Shown piece after piece: positions 6,237 through 64,000 of a stretch of 64,000 nucleotides of DNA. The stretch comes from Candidatus Collierbacteria bacterium (GTDB taxonomy: Bacteria > Patescibacteriota > Microgenomatia > UBA1400 > MFAQ01). Position numbers and translations under genes: made by a program. Numbering within the stretch: the first letter of the stretch is position 1; the number at the start of each line of letters is the position of its first letter. Location: assembly GCA_903886255.1 (NCBI GenBank), contig CAISLM010000072.1, positions 18,648-82,647 of the forward strand. Reading direction: 5' to 3'. The notes below the pieces were generated by a model. That model had not been told where the DNA came from. It did not search any database and saw only the letters and a list, made by a program, of their open reading frames with translations.

Positions 6237-7954
6237 TGAATTGATTTTTGTGAATTGAAGATTTGTTGATATTCCGGAGATTTTTTTAGCAGCTCCTTAT
6301 GAGTACCTATGGCTAAGAGTTCCCCTTCCATGACAAGAATTATTTGATCGAAATCTTCGACTGAAGAAATTTGCTGGGTAATAAGGATCTGAGTGATTCC
6401 ACTATAATTTTTCTTTAAATTAGCAAAGATCTTTTTTTCTGTTTCACGATCTACCCTAGCAGTAAAATCATCCAGTAATAAAATTTTTGGATTTACAACC
6501 AATGCGCGAGCGAGAGTGATTCTTTGCTTTTGACCACCTGACAAACTGGCTCCACGTTCGGCAATTTTTGTATCCAAACCATCGGGAAGGCTAGCGATAA
6601 AGTCATCAAGCTCGGCCGTGTGAATAGCTTTTTGGAAACTTTCCTCATTGTCAATATTTTTAAAATTTATATTTTCTCTAATGGAAGTATTGAAGATGGA
6701 GCTGTCTTGGAAAACAAGGCCGATTTGATCAGCGAGTGACTTAGCAGAATATTTTGATTGAGGTATATCATCTATGAGAATTTTCCCTGAACTATTTTTC
6801 AAAAGACCGGAAAGTAAGTAGAAAATCTGTGTTTTTCCTGCAGCCGTTGGTCCAAGAATCGCAGTACGAGATCCTGCCGGAATTTCAAATGATATTTTTT
6901 TGAGAATTTGCTTGTTACCATAATTCAGAGATACATTTTTGAAAGATACTTTACCCTGAATTTCTTTTTCCAGCTTACCCTTACGTCGAATATGTGGAGC
7001 ATAGAGAACGGCTGAAATTCTTTCGAAAGAAGCGACTGCCCTAGCCAGAACGTTACTTATGAAACCGAGGATGACAATGGGAAAAATTAACATGGAAATG
7101 TAACTCAGAAAGGCGGTTAAACCACCAATTGTGAAAGATCCGGAAATAATTGATCGACCACCAATAAGAAGGACGGCTACTAAACTGGCATTGGCAATTG
7201 CTCCAATAAGAGGAATTAGACTCGCAAATAGCTGGAGAATGGACATGCCGATTTCCCTTGATTGGGTACTCAGTTCTAAAAATTTTTGAGATTCCAGATA
7301 TTGAGAATTCAAAATGCGAATAAGAGATGAGGCGACAATACTTTCGTTGATAGTTTTGTTTAACTTATCTATGATCGCCTGAGCTCTCTTAAAGAAGTGC
7401 CGAATTTTACTAAAAATGAAAATAAAGATAATAACAATAAGGGGAATAATGGTGAGAACGATCAAGGCAAGATTGCGGTTAACAGAAATTAATAAAGCTC
7501 CTGCACCGAAAATAAGGATAATCGAAGAAAATACTTGGACTAACCCGAGAGCAATAACCTGTTTGAGATTATCAATATCTCCGGTGAGGTTAGTGAGCAA
7601 TTTTTCAGGAGTAATCTGATTGATGAAAGAAAATGGTTGGGTGGATATTTTTTGGATTAGGCGATTGCGAAGATCACGGCCGATTTTTTCCGACAGATAA
7701 GTCTGGAGAAAACTTTGAGCCATTGAAAAAATAAAGATAAATAAGGTAATGATGGAGAGGATTGTTAGAGATGCACTTAAATTAAAATTTTCTTTTCTAA
7801 AAGTATCGATTGTCGATGCCATTATTTTGGGAACCGCAAGGCTAAGGCCGTTGGTGGCAAGACTAATAAAAAAGACCAAGATAATAAAACCAATATATGG
7901 CTTGGCAAGAGAAATTATTTTTAAGGCGCTTCCGGAGCGTAATTTTTTGTTCAT
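6233..7954 (-). CDS. ABC transporter ATP-binding/permease subunit (heterodimeric exporter, subunit 1)
   Basis: Walker A GPTAAGKT, signature LSGGQKQRITLARA and Walker B LLLDDFTARVD. The ORF track extends to 8119, but that extension runs through a terminator hairpin (8036-8063). The internal Met MNKKLRSG...LAKPYIG at 7954 gives a typical exporter N-terminus. Confidence 0.8.
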   Translation of the reverse strand: MNKKLRSGSALKIISLAKPYIGFIILVFFISLATNGLSLAVPKIMASTIDTFRKENFNLSASLTILSIITLFIFIFSMAQSFLQTYLSEKIGRDLRNRLIQKISTQPFSFINQITPEKLLTNLTGDIDNLKQVIALGLVQVFSSIILIFGAGALLISVNRNLALIVLTIIPLIVIIFIFIFSKIRHFFKRAQAIIDKLNKTINESIVASSLIRILNSQYLESQKFLELSTQSREIGMSILQLFASLIPLIGAIANASLVAVLLIGGRSIISGSFTIGGLTAFLSYISMLIFPIVILGFISNVLARAVASFERISAVLYAPHIRRKGKLEKEIQGKVSFKNVSLNYGNKQILKKISFEIPAGSRTAILGPTAAGKTQIFYLLSGLLKNSSGKILIDDIPQSKYSAKSLADQIGLVFQDSSIFNTSIRENINFKNIDNEESFQKAIHTAELDDFIASLPDGLDTKIAERGASLSGGQKQRITLARALVVNPKILLLDDFTARVDRETEKKIFANLKKNYSGITQILITQQISSVEDFDQIILVMEGELLAIGTHKELLKKSPEYQQIFNSQKSIQ

Positions 7955-46331: not shown

Positions 46332-46379
46332 CTGGATTGCCACGGCACTTTGTGCCTCGCAATGACGGATTGAGGAATT
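46331..46379 (+). repeat. Structured short repeat, family A, copy 1
   Basis: TCTGGATTGCCACGGCACTTTGTGCCTCGCAATGACGGATTGAGGAATT. About 86% identical to the copy at 55061-55109. It forms a nested hairpin (ATTGC...GCAAT outer, GGCAC/GTGCC inner). Confidence 0.6.
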
Positions 46380-46945
46380 TAAAAAATGTCTTCAGGAGGA
46401 AGAAATTCTTCGCCATTAGCAACCTGGGGTTTATATTCTGTTTTTAACCATTGGACGTAGTCGCAGCCAGTAGCCTGTTTCGCTTCCCTATCCCAACCTG
46501 AGGTGGAACATTTTTTCATCTTTTTACCGGCAGCTGTTGTATATAAAACTAGAGGCTCGCCGCATTTGGGACATTTTTCGTCCAGCTTTTCGGTGGTACC
46601 ATTGATCCATTCAACATAATCACAACCAGTGGCCTTTTTTGCTTCTTTATCCCAGCCGCCGGCACTGCATTTTTTCATTTTTTTACCAAAACGGGTGACT
46701 TGAAGAACTAGTGGTGAGCCGCATTTGGGACATTTTTCGTCAAGGGTTTGGGGTTCAACTTCGAGCCATTTAACGTAATCGCAGCCGTCGGTTTTGTGAG
46801 TTTCTGTATTCCAGACACCTTTTGAACAACGTCTGAGCCTTCTACCTGTTGGGGTTTCTGTAACTTCAGCGAGTGGTGAGCCGCATTTGGGACATTTTTC
46901 TTCTTCCATGGTTATTAGATTAACACATTTGATGCAAGAAACCAA
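46379..46945 (-). CDS. Protein of three tandem topoisomerase-type C4 zinc-ribbon repeats
   Basis: Three repeats of (E)KCPKCGxPL...(K)C...GW...TGCDYVxW, resembling zf-C4_Topoisom. It is the last gene of the gltX-containing minus-strand operon. Confidence 0.55.
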   Translation of the reverse strand: MVSCIKCVNLITMEEEKCPKCGSPLAEVTETPTGRRLRRCSKGVWNTETHKTDGCDYVKWLEVEPQTLDEKCPKCGSPLVLQVTRFGKKMKKCSAGGWDKEAKKATGCDYVEWINGTTEKLDEKCPKCGEPLVLYTTAAGKKMKKCSTSGWDREAKQATGCDYVQWLKTEYKPQVANGEEFLPPEDIF

Positions 46946-54990: not shown

Positions 54991-55060
54991 TAAGTATCTC
55001 CTTCGAAATGAAATGTGCCAACTTGTTTTTGAATTGTAGCAGAAATATTATCTGGATTGC

Positions 55061-55109
55061 CACAGCACTTCGTGCTTCGCAATGACGAATGTGGAATTAT
55101 TGTAATTCC
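55061..55109 (+). repeat. Structured short repeat, family A, copy 2
   Basis: TCTGGATTGCCACAGCACTTCGTGCTTCGCAATGACGAATGTGGAATTA. The inner stem changes from GGCAC/GTGCC to AGCAC/GTGCT, which is a compensatory pair of changes relative to copy 1. Confidence 0.6.
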
Positions 55110-55178
55110 AAGTCAAGCCCGGAATGAGATAAATGAGGATGCTTTGATTCGAGTAAGAATCTCAAGATAACGGAATAC

Positions 55179-61560: not shown

Positions 61561-61662
61561 TTGATATAAGAGCTTGCTCTTATGTGGTTGGTATAAGAGC
61601 TTACTCCGCCTCCTTTCAATAACAGCTGTTATTGAAATGTCGTTGTGCGTTTCCTCTTATAT
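61561..61662 (+). repeat. Structured short repeat, family B, copy 1 (1.5 units)
   Basis: It starts with a mini-hairpin TATAAGAGCTTGCTCTTAT. A full unit follows: TATAAGAGCTTACTC + internal palindrome CAATAACAGCTGTTATTG + TTTCCTCTTATA. The outer arms TATAAGAG/CTCTTATA pair. Confidence 0.55.
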
Positions 61663-61699
61663 CTACGCCGATAACTATATTATCGTCTTGATATAATAT

Positions 61700-62025
61700 A
61701 CGTACTCCCGGGTGCTGGTGAGGAACGCCCCGCCTATGGCGGGGAGGAAAGTCCGGACAGCAAAAAGGAAGGGTGACCAAGGAAACTTGGTTCCATTTAG
61801 GGCGACCTAAGTGGCGCGATAGGGCCACAGAGACGAATAAAGGTGAAACGCTCTTGGATACAAGAGATTCCATAAGAGTAATTTTATGGAAGTGGTAACC
61901 CGCCCCGCTGCAATCGACGAATTGGGATTAAGGTGCCTTTTCCGTCCCAGAAGTCTCGAGCATTAGATAGATGTTCCTCCTAGACAAAATCCGGCTTACT
62001 ATGGCCCGGGGGTCCCGAAAGGGTC
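61700..62025 (+). ncRNA. rnpB: RNase P RNA (bacterial type A); boundaries approximate
   Basis: P3 hairpin CGCCCCGCC-tatg-GCGGGG, then the universally conserved P4 strand AGGAAAGTCCGGAC. Further 3': AAAGGTGAAACGC, GGTAACCCGCCCCGCTGCAA and ACAAAATCCGGCTTA (cf. ACAGAAyCCGGCUUA). A TATAAT lies about 10 nt upstream. Confidence 0.8.
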
Positions 62026-62044: not shown

Positions 62045-63040
62045 TTATTGAAGTTCGGGAACGTTCGTCGTTTTATTAAATCTGACGTGGGTAAGAAGTA
62101 CTTTGATCGAAAGTACTAATGGAATGGCGAGAACTGACATGAGCGGCCCACCAATTTTTAGACCCATCATGACGGCCAAGATAGTAATGATAGGATTTAA
62201 ACCTGCGGCATGCTTCATGACTGTTGGGGTAATCAAATTGTTTTCTAGTTGGTGAATTAATATCGAGACAACGAGAGCACCCAAACCCAAAGCTGGAGAG
62301 ATTGAAAAACCGACTATGGCAGCAGGAATGGCTGCAACAACGGGTCCAATGCTAGGAATAATTTCCAACAAACCCGCTATCAGTGTTAATGGAAGAACAT
62401 ATGGAATGCCGATAATCGAAAAACCAATGAAGGCCAAGATGCCGATAATCAGCATCAAGATTAATTCTCCCCTGAACCAGTTTCCAATTTGGACTTCCAA
62501 CTCGTTAACTACTTTGTAATAGGCTTCCCCTTTTTGGCCAAACCAAACCTTTAGGTCTGTTTCAATTTTTGATCTCTCTTGAAGCAGATAAAAACTCATA
62601 ACTATTACGGCTAAAACCGATATTGCACCGGTTAGGGTATCGATGGCAAAATTGAAAAATTTGCCAGGCACACTACCGATTTGTGAAGAAAAATCATTAA
62701 AATCTAGCTGATAAGGTAGTACTTTATTTGTGAGGTCAGGGAGTCTTTGAAATAATTGTTGCGTTTGAGTAATTATTGGGGAGATAACTGTGGAGATGGC
62801 AAAAACAAAAATAGAAAAGACTGTTATCAAAATCAAAATTGAAGAGACACCGCGATGGATTTTTTTATTTTCCAATTTTTGAACGAGTGGACTGATTGAG
62901 AATGAAATAATCAGTGAGGCAAACAACAAGATTAATATGTTATACGTACTGGCAAAGAAAAAGATTGCAGCAACTATTACTAATATTCGAAAAATCGAGG
63001 ATAGGGAGATATCAATAACCACATGGCGTTTTTTAAGCAT
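62045..63040 (-). CDS. AI-2E family transporter (UPF0118/PerM-like)
   Basis: Eight-TM protein with the family-typical LIAGLLEIIPSIGPVVAAIPAAIVGF segment. Confidence 0.75.
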   Translation of the reverse strand: MLKKRHVVIDISLSSIFRILVIVAAIFFFASTYNILILLFASLIISFSISPLVQKLENKKIHRGVSSILILITVFSIFVFAISTVISPIITQTQQLFQRLPDLTNKVLPYQLDFNDFSSQIGSVPGKFFNFAIDTLTGAISVLAVIVMSFYLLQERSKIETDLKVWFGQKGEAYYKVVNELEVQIGNWFRGELILMLIIGILAFIGFSIIGIPYVLPLTLIAGLLEIIPSIGPVVAAIPAAIVGFSISPALGLGALVVSILIHQLENNLITPTVMKHAAGLNPIITILAVMMGLKIGGPLMSVLAIPLVLSIKVLLTHVRFNKTTNVPELQ

Positions 63041-64000
63041 TTTGGAAATATTTTTTCAATTCTTTTATCAGCAAGTTTCTATCTATGTCTTTATCATACC
63101 AAACAATGTCATTTTGTTTTTTGAACCAGACAATTTGTCTTCTGGCATAGTCGGCTTCGGCATTTGTCCACTGTTCCACTAACTGATTTTTGGTTATATT
63201 TCCGCTTAAAAAGTTAATTATTTGAGATACACCAAGACCGGTATAGATAGGAAGAGTATGGTCCGGATAATTTTTGATTAATCTATTTACTTCATCGATA
63301 GCCCCTTCATCAATTCTTTTAATTACCCTATTTTTAATATTTGTTTTGAGTGTATTTTTGTCGGGCATTAAACCGATCCAACGAAAATTAACTTCAGAAA
63401 ATGGTGTTACTTGTATAAGAGCTTGCTCGTGTTTTGTCGATAACTGCGTTATCTTTACTAAACACTTGTGCTTCCTCTTATATTCGCTTGTAACTTCGTT
63501 ACAATGCTTGAATATGGATTCCGGGTCAAGCCCGGAATGACTTTCCGAAATTTCGATTTGCCTAATTAAACGACGGGGGTTCATTATGTCAGAATGGTTT
63601 AACGATGAGAATTTTTCAGGATTTTCTTTTTGCAATAGGCCTTGAAGTTCAGATAGAGATAATTTTTCCAATTTCTGACGTAATTTTTGATTGGGAGGAA
63701 TTAAGATATTGGAAAGATTTTGCGTAATGGCTTTAAGATAGAGCCCCGTACCGCCGACAATTACGAGAGGGGTATTTGTATCCTTAGAATTCTGAATTAT
63801 TTTTTGAGAGTATCGGACAAAATCAGCGAGATTCGCAGTTTCATCCGGTTCAAACAAATCGTGTCCGAAAATATTTATTCCTTTGGGTAAACTGTCCGGA
63901 ATATCCTTACCGGAGATTATGTCCAAACTTTTGTAAACTTGTCTGGAATCAACGGAAAGAATGTTAACTTTGGGAAGAGCTTTAGCTAATTGAAGTGCCA
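63033..64000 (-). CDS. miaA: tRNA dimethylallyltransferase, N-terminally truncated by the window edge
   Basis: The frame is open to base 64000 (…ALQLAKALPKVNILSVDSRQVYKSLDIISGKD = MiaA ADSMQVYKGMDIGTAK region). Downstream MiaA core motifs follow (LVIVGGTGLY, NPRRLIRQIEI). The ORF-track TTG start at 63926 is internal. Confidence 0.8.
   Translation of the reverse strand, partial: ALQLAKALPKVNILSVDSRQVYKSLDIISGKDIPDSLPKGINIFGHDLFEPDETANLADFVRYSQKIIQNSKDTNTPLVIVGGTGLYLKAITQNLSNILIPPNQKLRQKLEKLSLSELQGLLQKENPEKFSSLNHSDIMNPRRLIRQIEISESHSGLDPESIFKHCNEVTSEYKRKHKCLVKITQLSTKHEQALIQVTPFSEVNFRWIGLMPDKNTLKTNIKNRVIKRIDEGAIDEVNRLIKNYPDHTLPIYTGLGVSQIINFLSGNITKNQLVEQWTNAEADYARRQIVWFKKQNDIVWYDKDIDRNLLIKELKKYFQNA
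63411..63542 (+). repeat. Structured short repeat, family B copy 2 plus module C, lying inside the miaA coding frame
   Basis: TATAAGAGCTTGCTC + palindrome GATAACTGCGTTATC + TTCCTCTTATA, then hairpin TTGTAAC-ttcg-TTACAA, then ATTCCGGGTCAAGCCCGGAATGA. The last module occurs again at 55114-55137. Confidence 0.55.

Follow-up and report, generated by a model that had tools for sequence, protein, structure and literature searches.

Intragenic copies of small palindromic repeats have been documented for the CGTC and GTAG REPs and for the Rickettsia palindromic elements, or RPEs (PMC3733652; PMC10969869). The CGTC-tagged REPs of Di Nocera et al. 2013 include the Rickettsia elements RPE-4 and RPE-6, and in-frame insertions of REPs have been documented in several phyla (PMC3733652). 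The locus described here lies in the genome of an uncultured Microgenomates bacterium of the Candidate Phyla Radiation (CPR), within a stretch of 64,000 nucleotides that was analysed at its full length (the window). It carries two non-coding palindromic repeats, termed B and C, which have very probably become coding sequence of the miaA gene through a tolerated insertion at a permissive loop. The original prediction had described the case as RPE-like and rare; the likeness stands, but with in-frame REPs known from several phyla (PMC3733652) it is not as exceptional a phenomenon as was implied.

The miaA gene (tRNA dimethylallyltransferase) occupies positions 63033-64000 on the minus strand, with its stop codon at 63033-63035 and its 5' end beyond the window. 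Its open minus-strand frame (63036-63998) gives a Pfam IPPT match (E 1.5e-44), and the PDB matches of the product are the solved MiaA proteins of Bacillus halodurans, Staphylococcus epidermidis, E. coli and Pseudomonas. The full gene, taken from public contigs with an identical neighbouring transporter gene, codes for a protein of 342 aa (P0001; L001 8980-10008). Between the blocks RRLIRQIEIS and FRWIGL this MiaA holds SHSGLDPESIFKHCNEVTSEYKRKHKCLVKITQLSTKHEQALIQ, and the claim that a repeat sits in frame inside miaA is thereby borne out, with the frame open and the quoted peptide present at that place. Tryptic peptides predicted from the frame include ITQLSTK and HEQALIQVTPFSEVNFR. From the intact frame we infer that the protein contains the translated insert, ~37-43 additional aa, and that these are harmless.

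The insert had been taken for one unit of 132 nt (44 codons). It does consist of repeat DNA, but not of a single unit: it contains two unrelated elements, B of 102 nt and C of 26 nt. Element B extends from 63414 to 63515, which is exactly 34 codons (IFKH...QALI). Its core, at 63414-63482 on the plus strand, comprises a closing stem (TATAAGAG...CTCTTATA), a second stem and an inner hairpin GATAACtgcGTTATC, and scores 61.2 bits (E 6.7e-13) with CM R1, a model built from 51 B-family members. In family orientation the core is antisense to the gene, and it codes for residues ~194-216 (YKRKHKCLVKITQLSTKHEQALI). The core is followed at 63483-63515, on the same plus strand, by a second hairpin TTGTAACttcGTTACAA and a 3' tail GCTTGAATAT, which code for IFKHCNEVTSE on the miaA strand; this hairpin and tail module comes after the core in nearly all members of the family, and its stems covary. 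Element C, at 63516-63541 on the minus strand, is a 26-nt REP-like palindrome of the form GTCATTCC..GGAATCC that reads GTCATTCCGGGCTTGACCCGGAATCC on the miaA strand and codes for (S)HSGLDPES. B and C together measure 128 nt, a length that three does not divide, and two or more events, or additional indels, must therefore be assumed.

Examination of the whole 64-kb window with CM R1 shows exactly two full copies of B and one collapsed remnant. The second full copy is intergenic, at 61592-61697 on the plus strand, with the core at 61592-61661 (80.3 bits) and the hairpin and tail reaching to ~61697. The nucleotide similarity that had been proposed between the insert and the region 61561-61662 is thus real, the two cores scoring 80 bits at 61592-61661 and 61 bits at 63414-63482. 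Alignment of these two cores shows that both ends are alike (TATAAGAGCTTrCTC and TTCCTCTTATA), as is the inner hairpin, and each core is followed on its 3' side by a second hairpin and then an A/T-rich tail. The 16-mer TATAAGAGCTTGCTC(G) and TTCCTCTTATA are common to the miaA copy and the locus upstream of the RNase P RNA. The remnant, TATAAGAGCTTGCTCTTATG at 61565-61584 on the plus strand (repeat family D7), retains the closing stem alone, its interior being deleted, and scores 19.7 bits (E 0.029). A window-wide repeat search places GTATAAGAGCTTGCTC at 61565, 61592 and 63414. Rfam matches at gathering score in the window are confined to the RNase P RNA and one tRNA, and scans of Rfam 15 at both gathering and permissive thresholds gave nothing over either B copy at E values up to 10.

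The distribution of B was assessed in genomes and metagenomes. A scan of one genome per species with the pattern TATAAGAGCTT-N(35-65)-TCCTCTTATA returned 56 loci, of which ~48 are 68-75 nt long and belong without exception to Collierbacteria, Woesebacteria or Patescibacteria MAGs, several of them mislabelled. Approximately eight matches in unrelated taxa are of 66, 79 or 82 nt and without a common interior, and a Rickettsia match of 82 nt (L028) is due to chance, the B signature being absent. The metagenome scan added at least 62 further distinct copies. The search for additional copies has therefore yielded ~110 of them beside the one in miaA, all non-coding, distributed among Collierbacteria, Woesebacteria and other Microgenomates. 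In eleven contigs (L080, L086, L088, L101, L103, L111, L114, L125, L127, L152 and L162) the pattern was matched by an identical 76-nt sequence unrelated to B; four of these are labelled human-gut metagenome in the scan output. A search of viral contigs gave a chance match only, and no autonomous element bounded by B ends was found in ~1.1 Mb of loci examined. Neither a conserved flank nor an obvious duplication was seen at the B copies, and RNA genes downstream of B tails showed no systematic association. Head-to-tail arrays of B occur at L041 4174-4341, L067 1270-1533 and L161 1-340, the tail of one unit overlapping the head of the next, and L067 additionally contains truncated units of 58 nt. 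In L161 (100-150 and 380-432), GTAGGTCCCGCGTTCGAGTCGCGGCTGGGTCA follows each of two B tails and resembles the 3' half of a tRNA; a full tRNA was not called at these positions.

The core of B measures ~70 nt and the whole element ~102-115 nt, with no coding capacity. Its three helices, as represented in alignment A5, have 92.7% of cells paired, compared to 37-49% in slid controls, and compensatory (two-sided) changes are found in 14 of the 25 core pairs. One G:C pair, for example, is replaced by A:U in three copies, including the intergenic copy of the window, and by U:A in two. The termini, TATAAGAG and CTCTTATA, are invariant inverted repeats that are lengthened by a covarying G:C pair. Both strands fold well, the reverse strand being the more stable by a mean of 2 kcal/mol (41 of 51 copies, p 3e-6), and so small a difference does not decide between RNA and DNA. 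Taken as a family, B is new, MITE-like and strongly structured; it is Microgenomates-wide and not in Rfam, we found no earlier description of it or of insertions of this kind in the lineage, and the literature on CPR palindromic or MITE insertions and on typical REP peptides yielded nothing specific.

None of the ~110 other copies of B is truly intragenic. Five candidates (L033, L057, L091, L096 and L141) proved spurious, lying at an ORF edge, upstream of the likely start codon or in a short unsupported ORF. The antisense frame that contains the YKRK motif (..EYKRK..), which is the one used in miaA, is free of stop codons in 30 of 107 copies (28%) and is the commonest open frame of the family. 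Since an intragenic copy has to be in the right orientation and frame, have a length divisible by three and fall in a tolerant loop, the rarity of such copies is explained without recourse to function, and the miaA copy is a rare survivor.

The settings of the intergenic copies point to a possible role in transcription. Among 70 fully flanked cases, 43 lie between tandem genes, 22 between divergent and 5 between convergent ones, the last setting being avoided, and there is no orientation bias. At loci L004-L163 (e.g., L012, L032, L035, L047, L053 and L058), the flanking start codons concentrate at two distances, 8-14 nt from the TATAAGAG end and 6-12 nt beyond the tail, and the intervening sequence has no Shine-Dalgarno motif; the tails resemble extended -10 boxes (e.g., TTGTTATAAT and TTGATATAAT). 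The intergenic copy of the window has a tail that reads cTTGATATAAT (61686-61707 region), and its TATAAT, at 61691-61696, stops 10 nt short of the RNase P RNA 5' end; the Rfam match to that RNA covers 61707-62014. A sigma-70 scan upstream of rnpB, which requires a -35 box, found no promoter. Judged by these sequence features, the intergenic B of the window may supply the promoter of rnpB, and the ends of B in general may bear promoters; the start-codon distances suggest that the resulting mRNAs would be leaderless. If the termini truly promote leaderless genes, they would offer a handle on transcription signals in organisms that are unculturable.

A more far-reaching interpretation would make B a functional, structure-dependent regulatory module in Microgenomates, that is, a mobile promoter or operator with leaderless transcription from both TATA ends; the miaA copy, together with the turnover of REPs in the MiaA loop, would then indicate that CPR bacteria routinely use such modules to build new protein segments and perhaps promoters as well, internal or antisense. 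We regard this as unlikely. Under the preferred reading, that of a tolerated insertion, intergenic copies adjoin gene starts, with TATA-ended termini that resemble -10 boxes 6-12 nt before start codons, and may carry promoters, like the Correia elements; any such role would be irrelevant or incidental within miaA.

The evidence that the segment was acquired comes from the orthologues. In a protein database of 5.8 billion sequences, the closest MiaA orthologues are 62-73% identical to the protein of the window, measure 303-312 aa as opposed to 342 aa, and do not contain B; no relatives between 73% and 100% identity were present. CM R1 likewise detects no B signal at the orthologous loci L060-L063. 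Because the closest orthologues are without the segment, it is an indel, and the alignment check that had been proposed favours the insertion. The corresponding empty-site allele, CCCGGAATCC..CAAGTAACACCATT, gave no matches in the metagenome scan, and we therefore infer the insertion event itself, where exactly it begins and ends, and any target-site duplication. In 59 of the 119 orthologues the linker from IEIS to FxWIGL has 15-17 aa; in the protein of the window it has 53. It had been claimed that the surplus matches the length of the repeat; extra residues are indeed present, but 44 aa is too high a figure, the excess over close orthologues being ~36-38 aa. Reading the segment as part of a loop also holds, the same loop ranging from 15 to 60 aa among the orthologues.

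Other palindromes occupy this loop in related proteins. By eye, REP-like peptides are present there in about one quarter of the 119 Microgenomates orthologues (alignment A6), for example VIPAKAGIH, SLRGAKRRGNL, RHCEERSDVAIS and HSRESGNLY, and the REP origin of such segments was checked on the DNA of three orthologues (L060, L061 and L062). P0005 (L061) contains a C-type element at the same codon position as in the window, followed by an element of a second, D type; two stem pairs of its C-type element are changed on both sides (TTCCGGG/CCCGGAA vs TTCCCGA/TCGGGAA). The loop of P0002 (L060) has a D-type element alone, and that of P0057 (L062) has both C and D further along. The MiaA loop is thus clearly tolerant and constitutes a permissive site for REP-derived segments, up to 60 aa. 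On this pattern, C may predate B in the loop, with independent insertion at one site as the alternative, and the simplest reading would be that B landed beside a REP that the loop already contained. Inserts of this REP-derived kind are also found at a second MiaA site, located after the P-loop helix, in P0064 and P0077, and as an N-terminal extension in P0023.

The short palindromes C (26 nt) and D (33 nt) occur in the window, upstream of miaA and in other genomes. A similarity of the C module had been reported near 55114-55137. Its 16-nt core is confirmed, but the left arm of that copy (55104-55128) has decayed and the core is all that is in common; a better copy, matching at 28 of 29 positions, lies just outside the window, ~15 nt upstream of the miaA start codon (L001 8937-8965), where it adjoins a related palindrome of the D type, GTCATTGC..GCAATCC. 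The decayed copy forms part of an intergenic pair at 55054-55128 on the minus strand (repeat family D8; ORF list), its partner being a CGTC-tagged D-type palindrome, GTCATTGC..GCAATCC, at 55054-55086. Another CGTC-tagged D-type palindrome, GTCATTGCGAGGCACAAAGTGCCGTGGCAATCC, is intergenic at 46334-46366, also on the minus strand (repeat family D8; ORF list). The CGTC tag is found in all D copies examined and in the C copy of L060; the miaA copy of C begins with AGTC and the upstream copy with TGTC. As judged from their sequences, C and D resemble the CGTC-tagged REP class, the miaA copy having AGTC in place of the tag. Close to the last of these palindromes, at 46443-46903, are repeats with a period of ~159 nt (repeat families D1-D3) inside a minus-strand ORF, 46379-46945 (188 aa); their core GCCGCATTTGGGACATTTTTC would give a CPKCG-like motif, and the product is probably a tandem zinc-ribbon-type repeat protein.

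Identical copies of C are found upstream of miaA in the syntenic locus L060 and, in L023, immediately behind a B tail. In the latter (~6990-7046, minus strand), the arrangement is like that of the window at 63483-63541, namely a B tail and then an identical C in a second genome. Because this order recurs, the adjacency of B and C is non-random, and it suggests either that REP ends are targeted or that the two elements move as a composite. The miaB-miaA spacer (L001 8888-8965, compared with L060 2943-3000) contains a C-type palindrome in both genomes and an extra D-type palindrome only in the genome of the window, which amounts to a presence/absence difference between relatives.

The consequences for the protein were assessed with an AF2 model of MiaA based on 119 sequences (mean pLDDT 89.8, pTM 0.83). 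The pLDDT drops to 44-57 only at residues ~181-220, where a helix (180-193) is weakly supported; mapped onto the structure, the segment is the sole low-confidence stretch of an otherwise confident MiaA fold. The best Foldseek matches of the model are the MiaA structures 3EXA, 2ZM5 and 3FOZ (target-normalised TM 0.69-0.76), the latter two being complexes of E. coli MiaA with tRNA. The insert site comes after the last helix of the insertion domain and before the next beta-strand of the core, which is the point at which alignments to solved MiaA proteins break. The insert is rich in Lys, His and Glu. According to the model, the extra segment is probably a loosely ordered excursion of a length-variable loop that leaves the fold intact.

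This location raises the prospect of exaptation, whereby a Lys/His-rich segment next to the tRNA-clamping insertion domain would give MiaA additional contact with tRNA, the ability to bind a partner or some other new function, and be kept by selection. The basic character of the segment (KRKHK, K and H) and its position at the hinge of insertion domain and core are in keeping with such a role, as is the identity of the allele in three independently assembled contigs. The miaA copy also has the lowest CM R1 score of all full-length B copies (61 bits vs 62-95), which would fit divergence under new constraints but is explained equally well by age or subfamily. Moreover, the segment is present in one lineage only, the insert-bearing miaA being known from a single genome, the AF2 confidence of the insert is low, and the loop is hypervariable in both length and content among orthologues. 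We therefore consider selection for a new function improbable.

A gene recently inactivated, in which the open frame across the insert would be a matter of luck and the protein non-functional or not made, is a very improbable explanation. CPR genomes lose tRNA-modification genes, and the insert would form three strong hairpins in the mRNA strand (-40.5 kcal/mol, z -6.3; the opposite strand gives -42.1 kcal/mol, z -5.5). However, the 342-aa frame is intact, every family-invariant MiaA residue is kept in P0001, and the three independently assembled contigs, whose miaA sequences are identical, are free of frameshifts; the protein is on record for 21 contigs. The start codon and the 8-nt overlap of the 3' end with the downstream AI-2E transporter gene are likewise kept, as is the upstream neighbour, a MiaB-like radical-SAM gene, and the gene looks functional. 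What seemed to be a split miaA in L002 proved to be a run of Ns in the scaffold, and a frameshift allele was ruled out there.

The strong, conserved structure would also be expected of an intervening sequence removed after transcription to give a protein without the segment, and CPR rRNA genes do carry insertions that are missing from the mature rRNA. This we hold to be highly improbable: intron and ribozyme families of Rfam have no match here, B is antisense in this gene and all its other copies are intergenic, and an exact 34 codons in an open frame is what is predicted for a translated survivor. The notion that the segment is ancestral to MiaA and that the intergenic look-alikes are dispersed miaA fragments has nothing more in its favour than the shared sequence and is scarcely credible, given ~110 intergenic copies in many genera whose own MiaA is without the segment, conservation of stems with compensatory changes rather than of codons, and a peptide frame that varies between copies. 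Repeats being a classic cause of misassembly, an assembler might have misjoined one into miaA, but this is practically discounted by junctions that are identical between the scaffolds of two BUCK21 samples and a k141 contig, which differ in sample and assembler, and by exact preservation of the frame.

The reading that remains, namely a tolerated insertion at a permissive loop, can be outlined as follows. C, a REP-like hairpin of 26 nt, sits at the start of the variable linker, and B, a structured repeat found throughout the Microgenomates, adjoins it in antisense orientation. Contributing 34 codons in the most often stop-free frame of its family, B leaves the gene open. The insertion would be a tolerated, probably near-neutral one, and the inserted DNA selfish or recombinogenic. 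Other REP-type palindromes are present in the same loop of many orthologues, and one palindrome already in place may draw in another. The Candidate Phyla Radiation would join Rickettsia and the few further phyla in which selfish DNA is known within protein genes, and one loop of a universal tRNA-modification enzyme takes up palindromic repeats repeatedly. Such insertions lengthen CPR proteins and yield spurious peptides, low-complexity or hypothetical, that need to be recognised in annotation and in structure prediction.

Like the RPEs (Ogata et al. 2000), the elements in miaA are small palindromic repeats with stable predicted hairpins, inserted in frame into a conserved housekeeping gene of a reduced-genome bacterium, and in both cases the extra surface segment, a predicted one in this MiaA, is compatible with the fold (RPEs as summarised in PMC10969869 and PMC3733652). 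B is set apart from the RPEs by lineage, Rickettsia as opposed to CPR/Microgenomates, and by intragenic frequency: about half of the RPE-1 copies are intragenic, compared to ~1 in 110 for B, which is almost never found inside genes and in this respect is unlike RPE-1. The CGTC-tagged REPs are comparable to C and D in being imperfect palindromes of 26-33 nt in multiple copies, single or as adjacent pairs, mostly intergenic and sometimes in genes, where each insert encodes 9-30 aa (PMC3733652). The D copies and some C copies share the CGTC start, whereas the miaA copy of C starts with AGTC; CPR genomes were outside the survey of Di Nocera et al. (PMC3733652). The class has no known dedicated transposase. 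Intragenic ERIC, BOX and other MITEs are similar in being non-autonomous repeats with occasional in-frame fusions to host ORFs (PMC10969869), but they have other hosts and other sequences, and for B neither an autonomous partner IS nor a target-site duplication was found. In common with MITEs in general, B is small and non-coding and has terminal inverted repeats. The Correia repeat-enclosed elements of Neisseria, of ~100-150 nt, begin and end with TATA, and their ends can, together with adjoining bases, form -10-like boxes beside gene starts. B is similar to them in size, in its TATA-ended termini and in the -10-like ends at gene starts, its promoter activity being putative; the sequences of the two are unrelated, and B possesses in addition a covarying second hairpin outside the inverted repeats.
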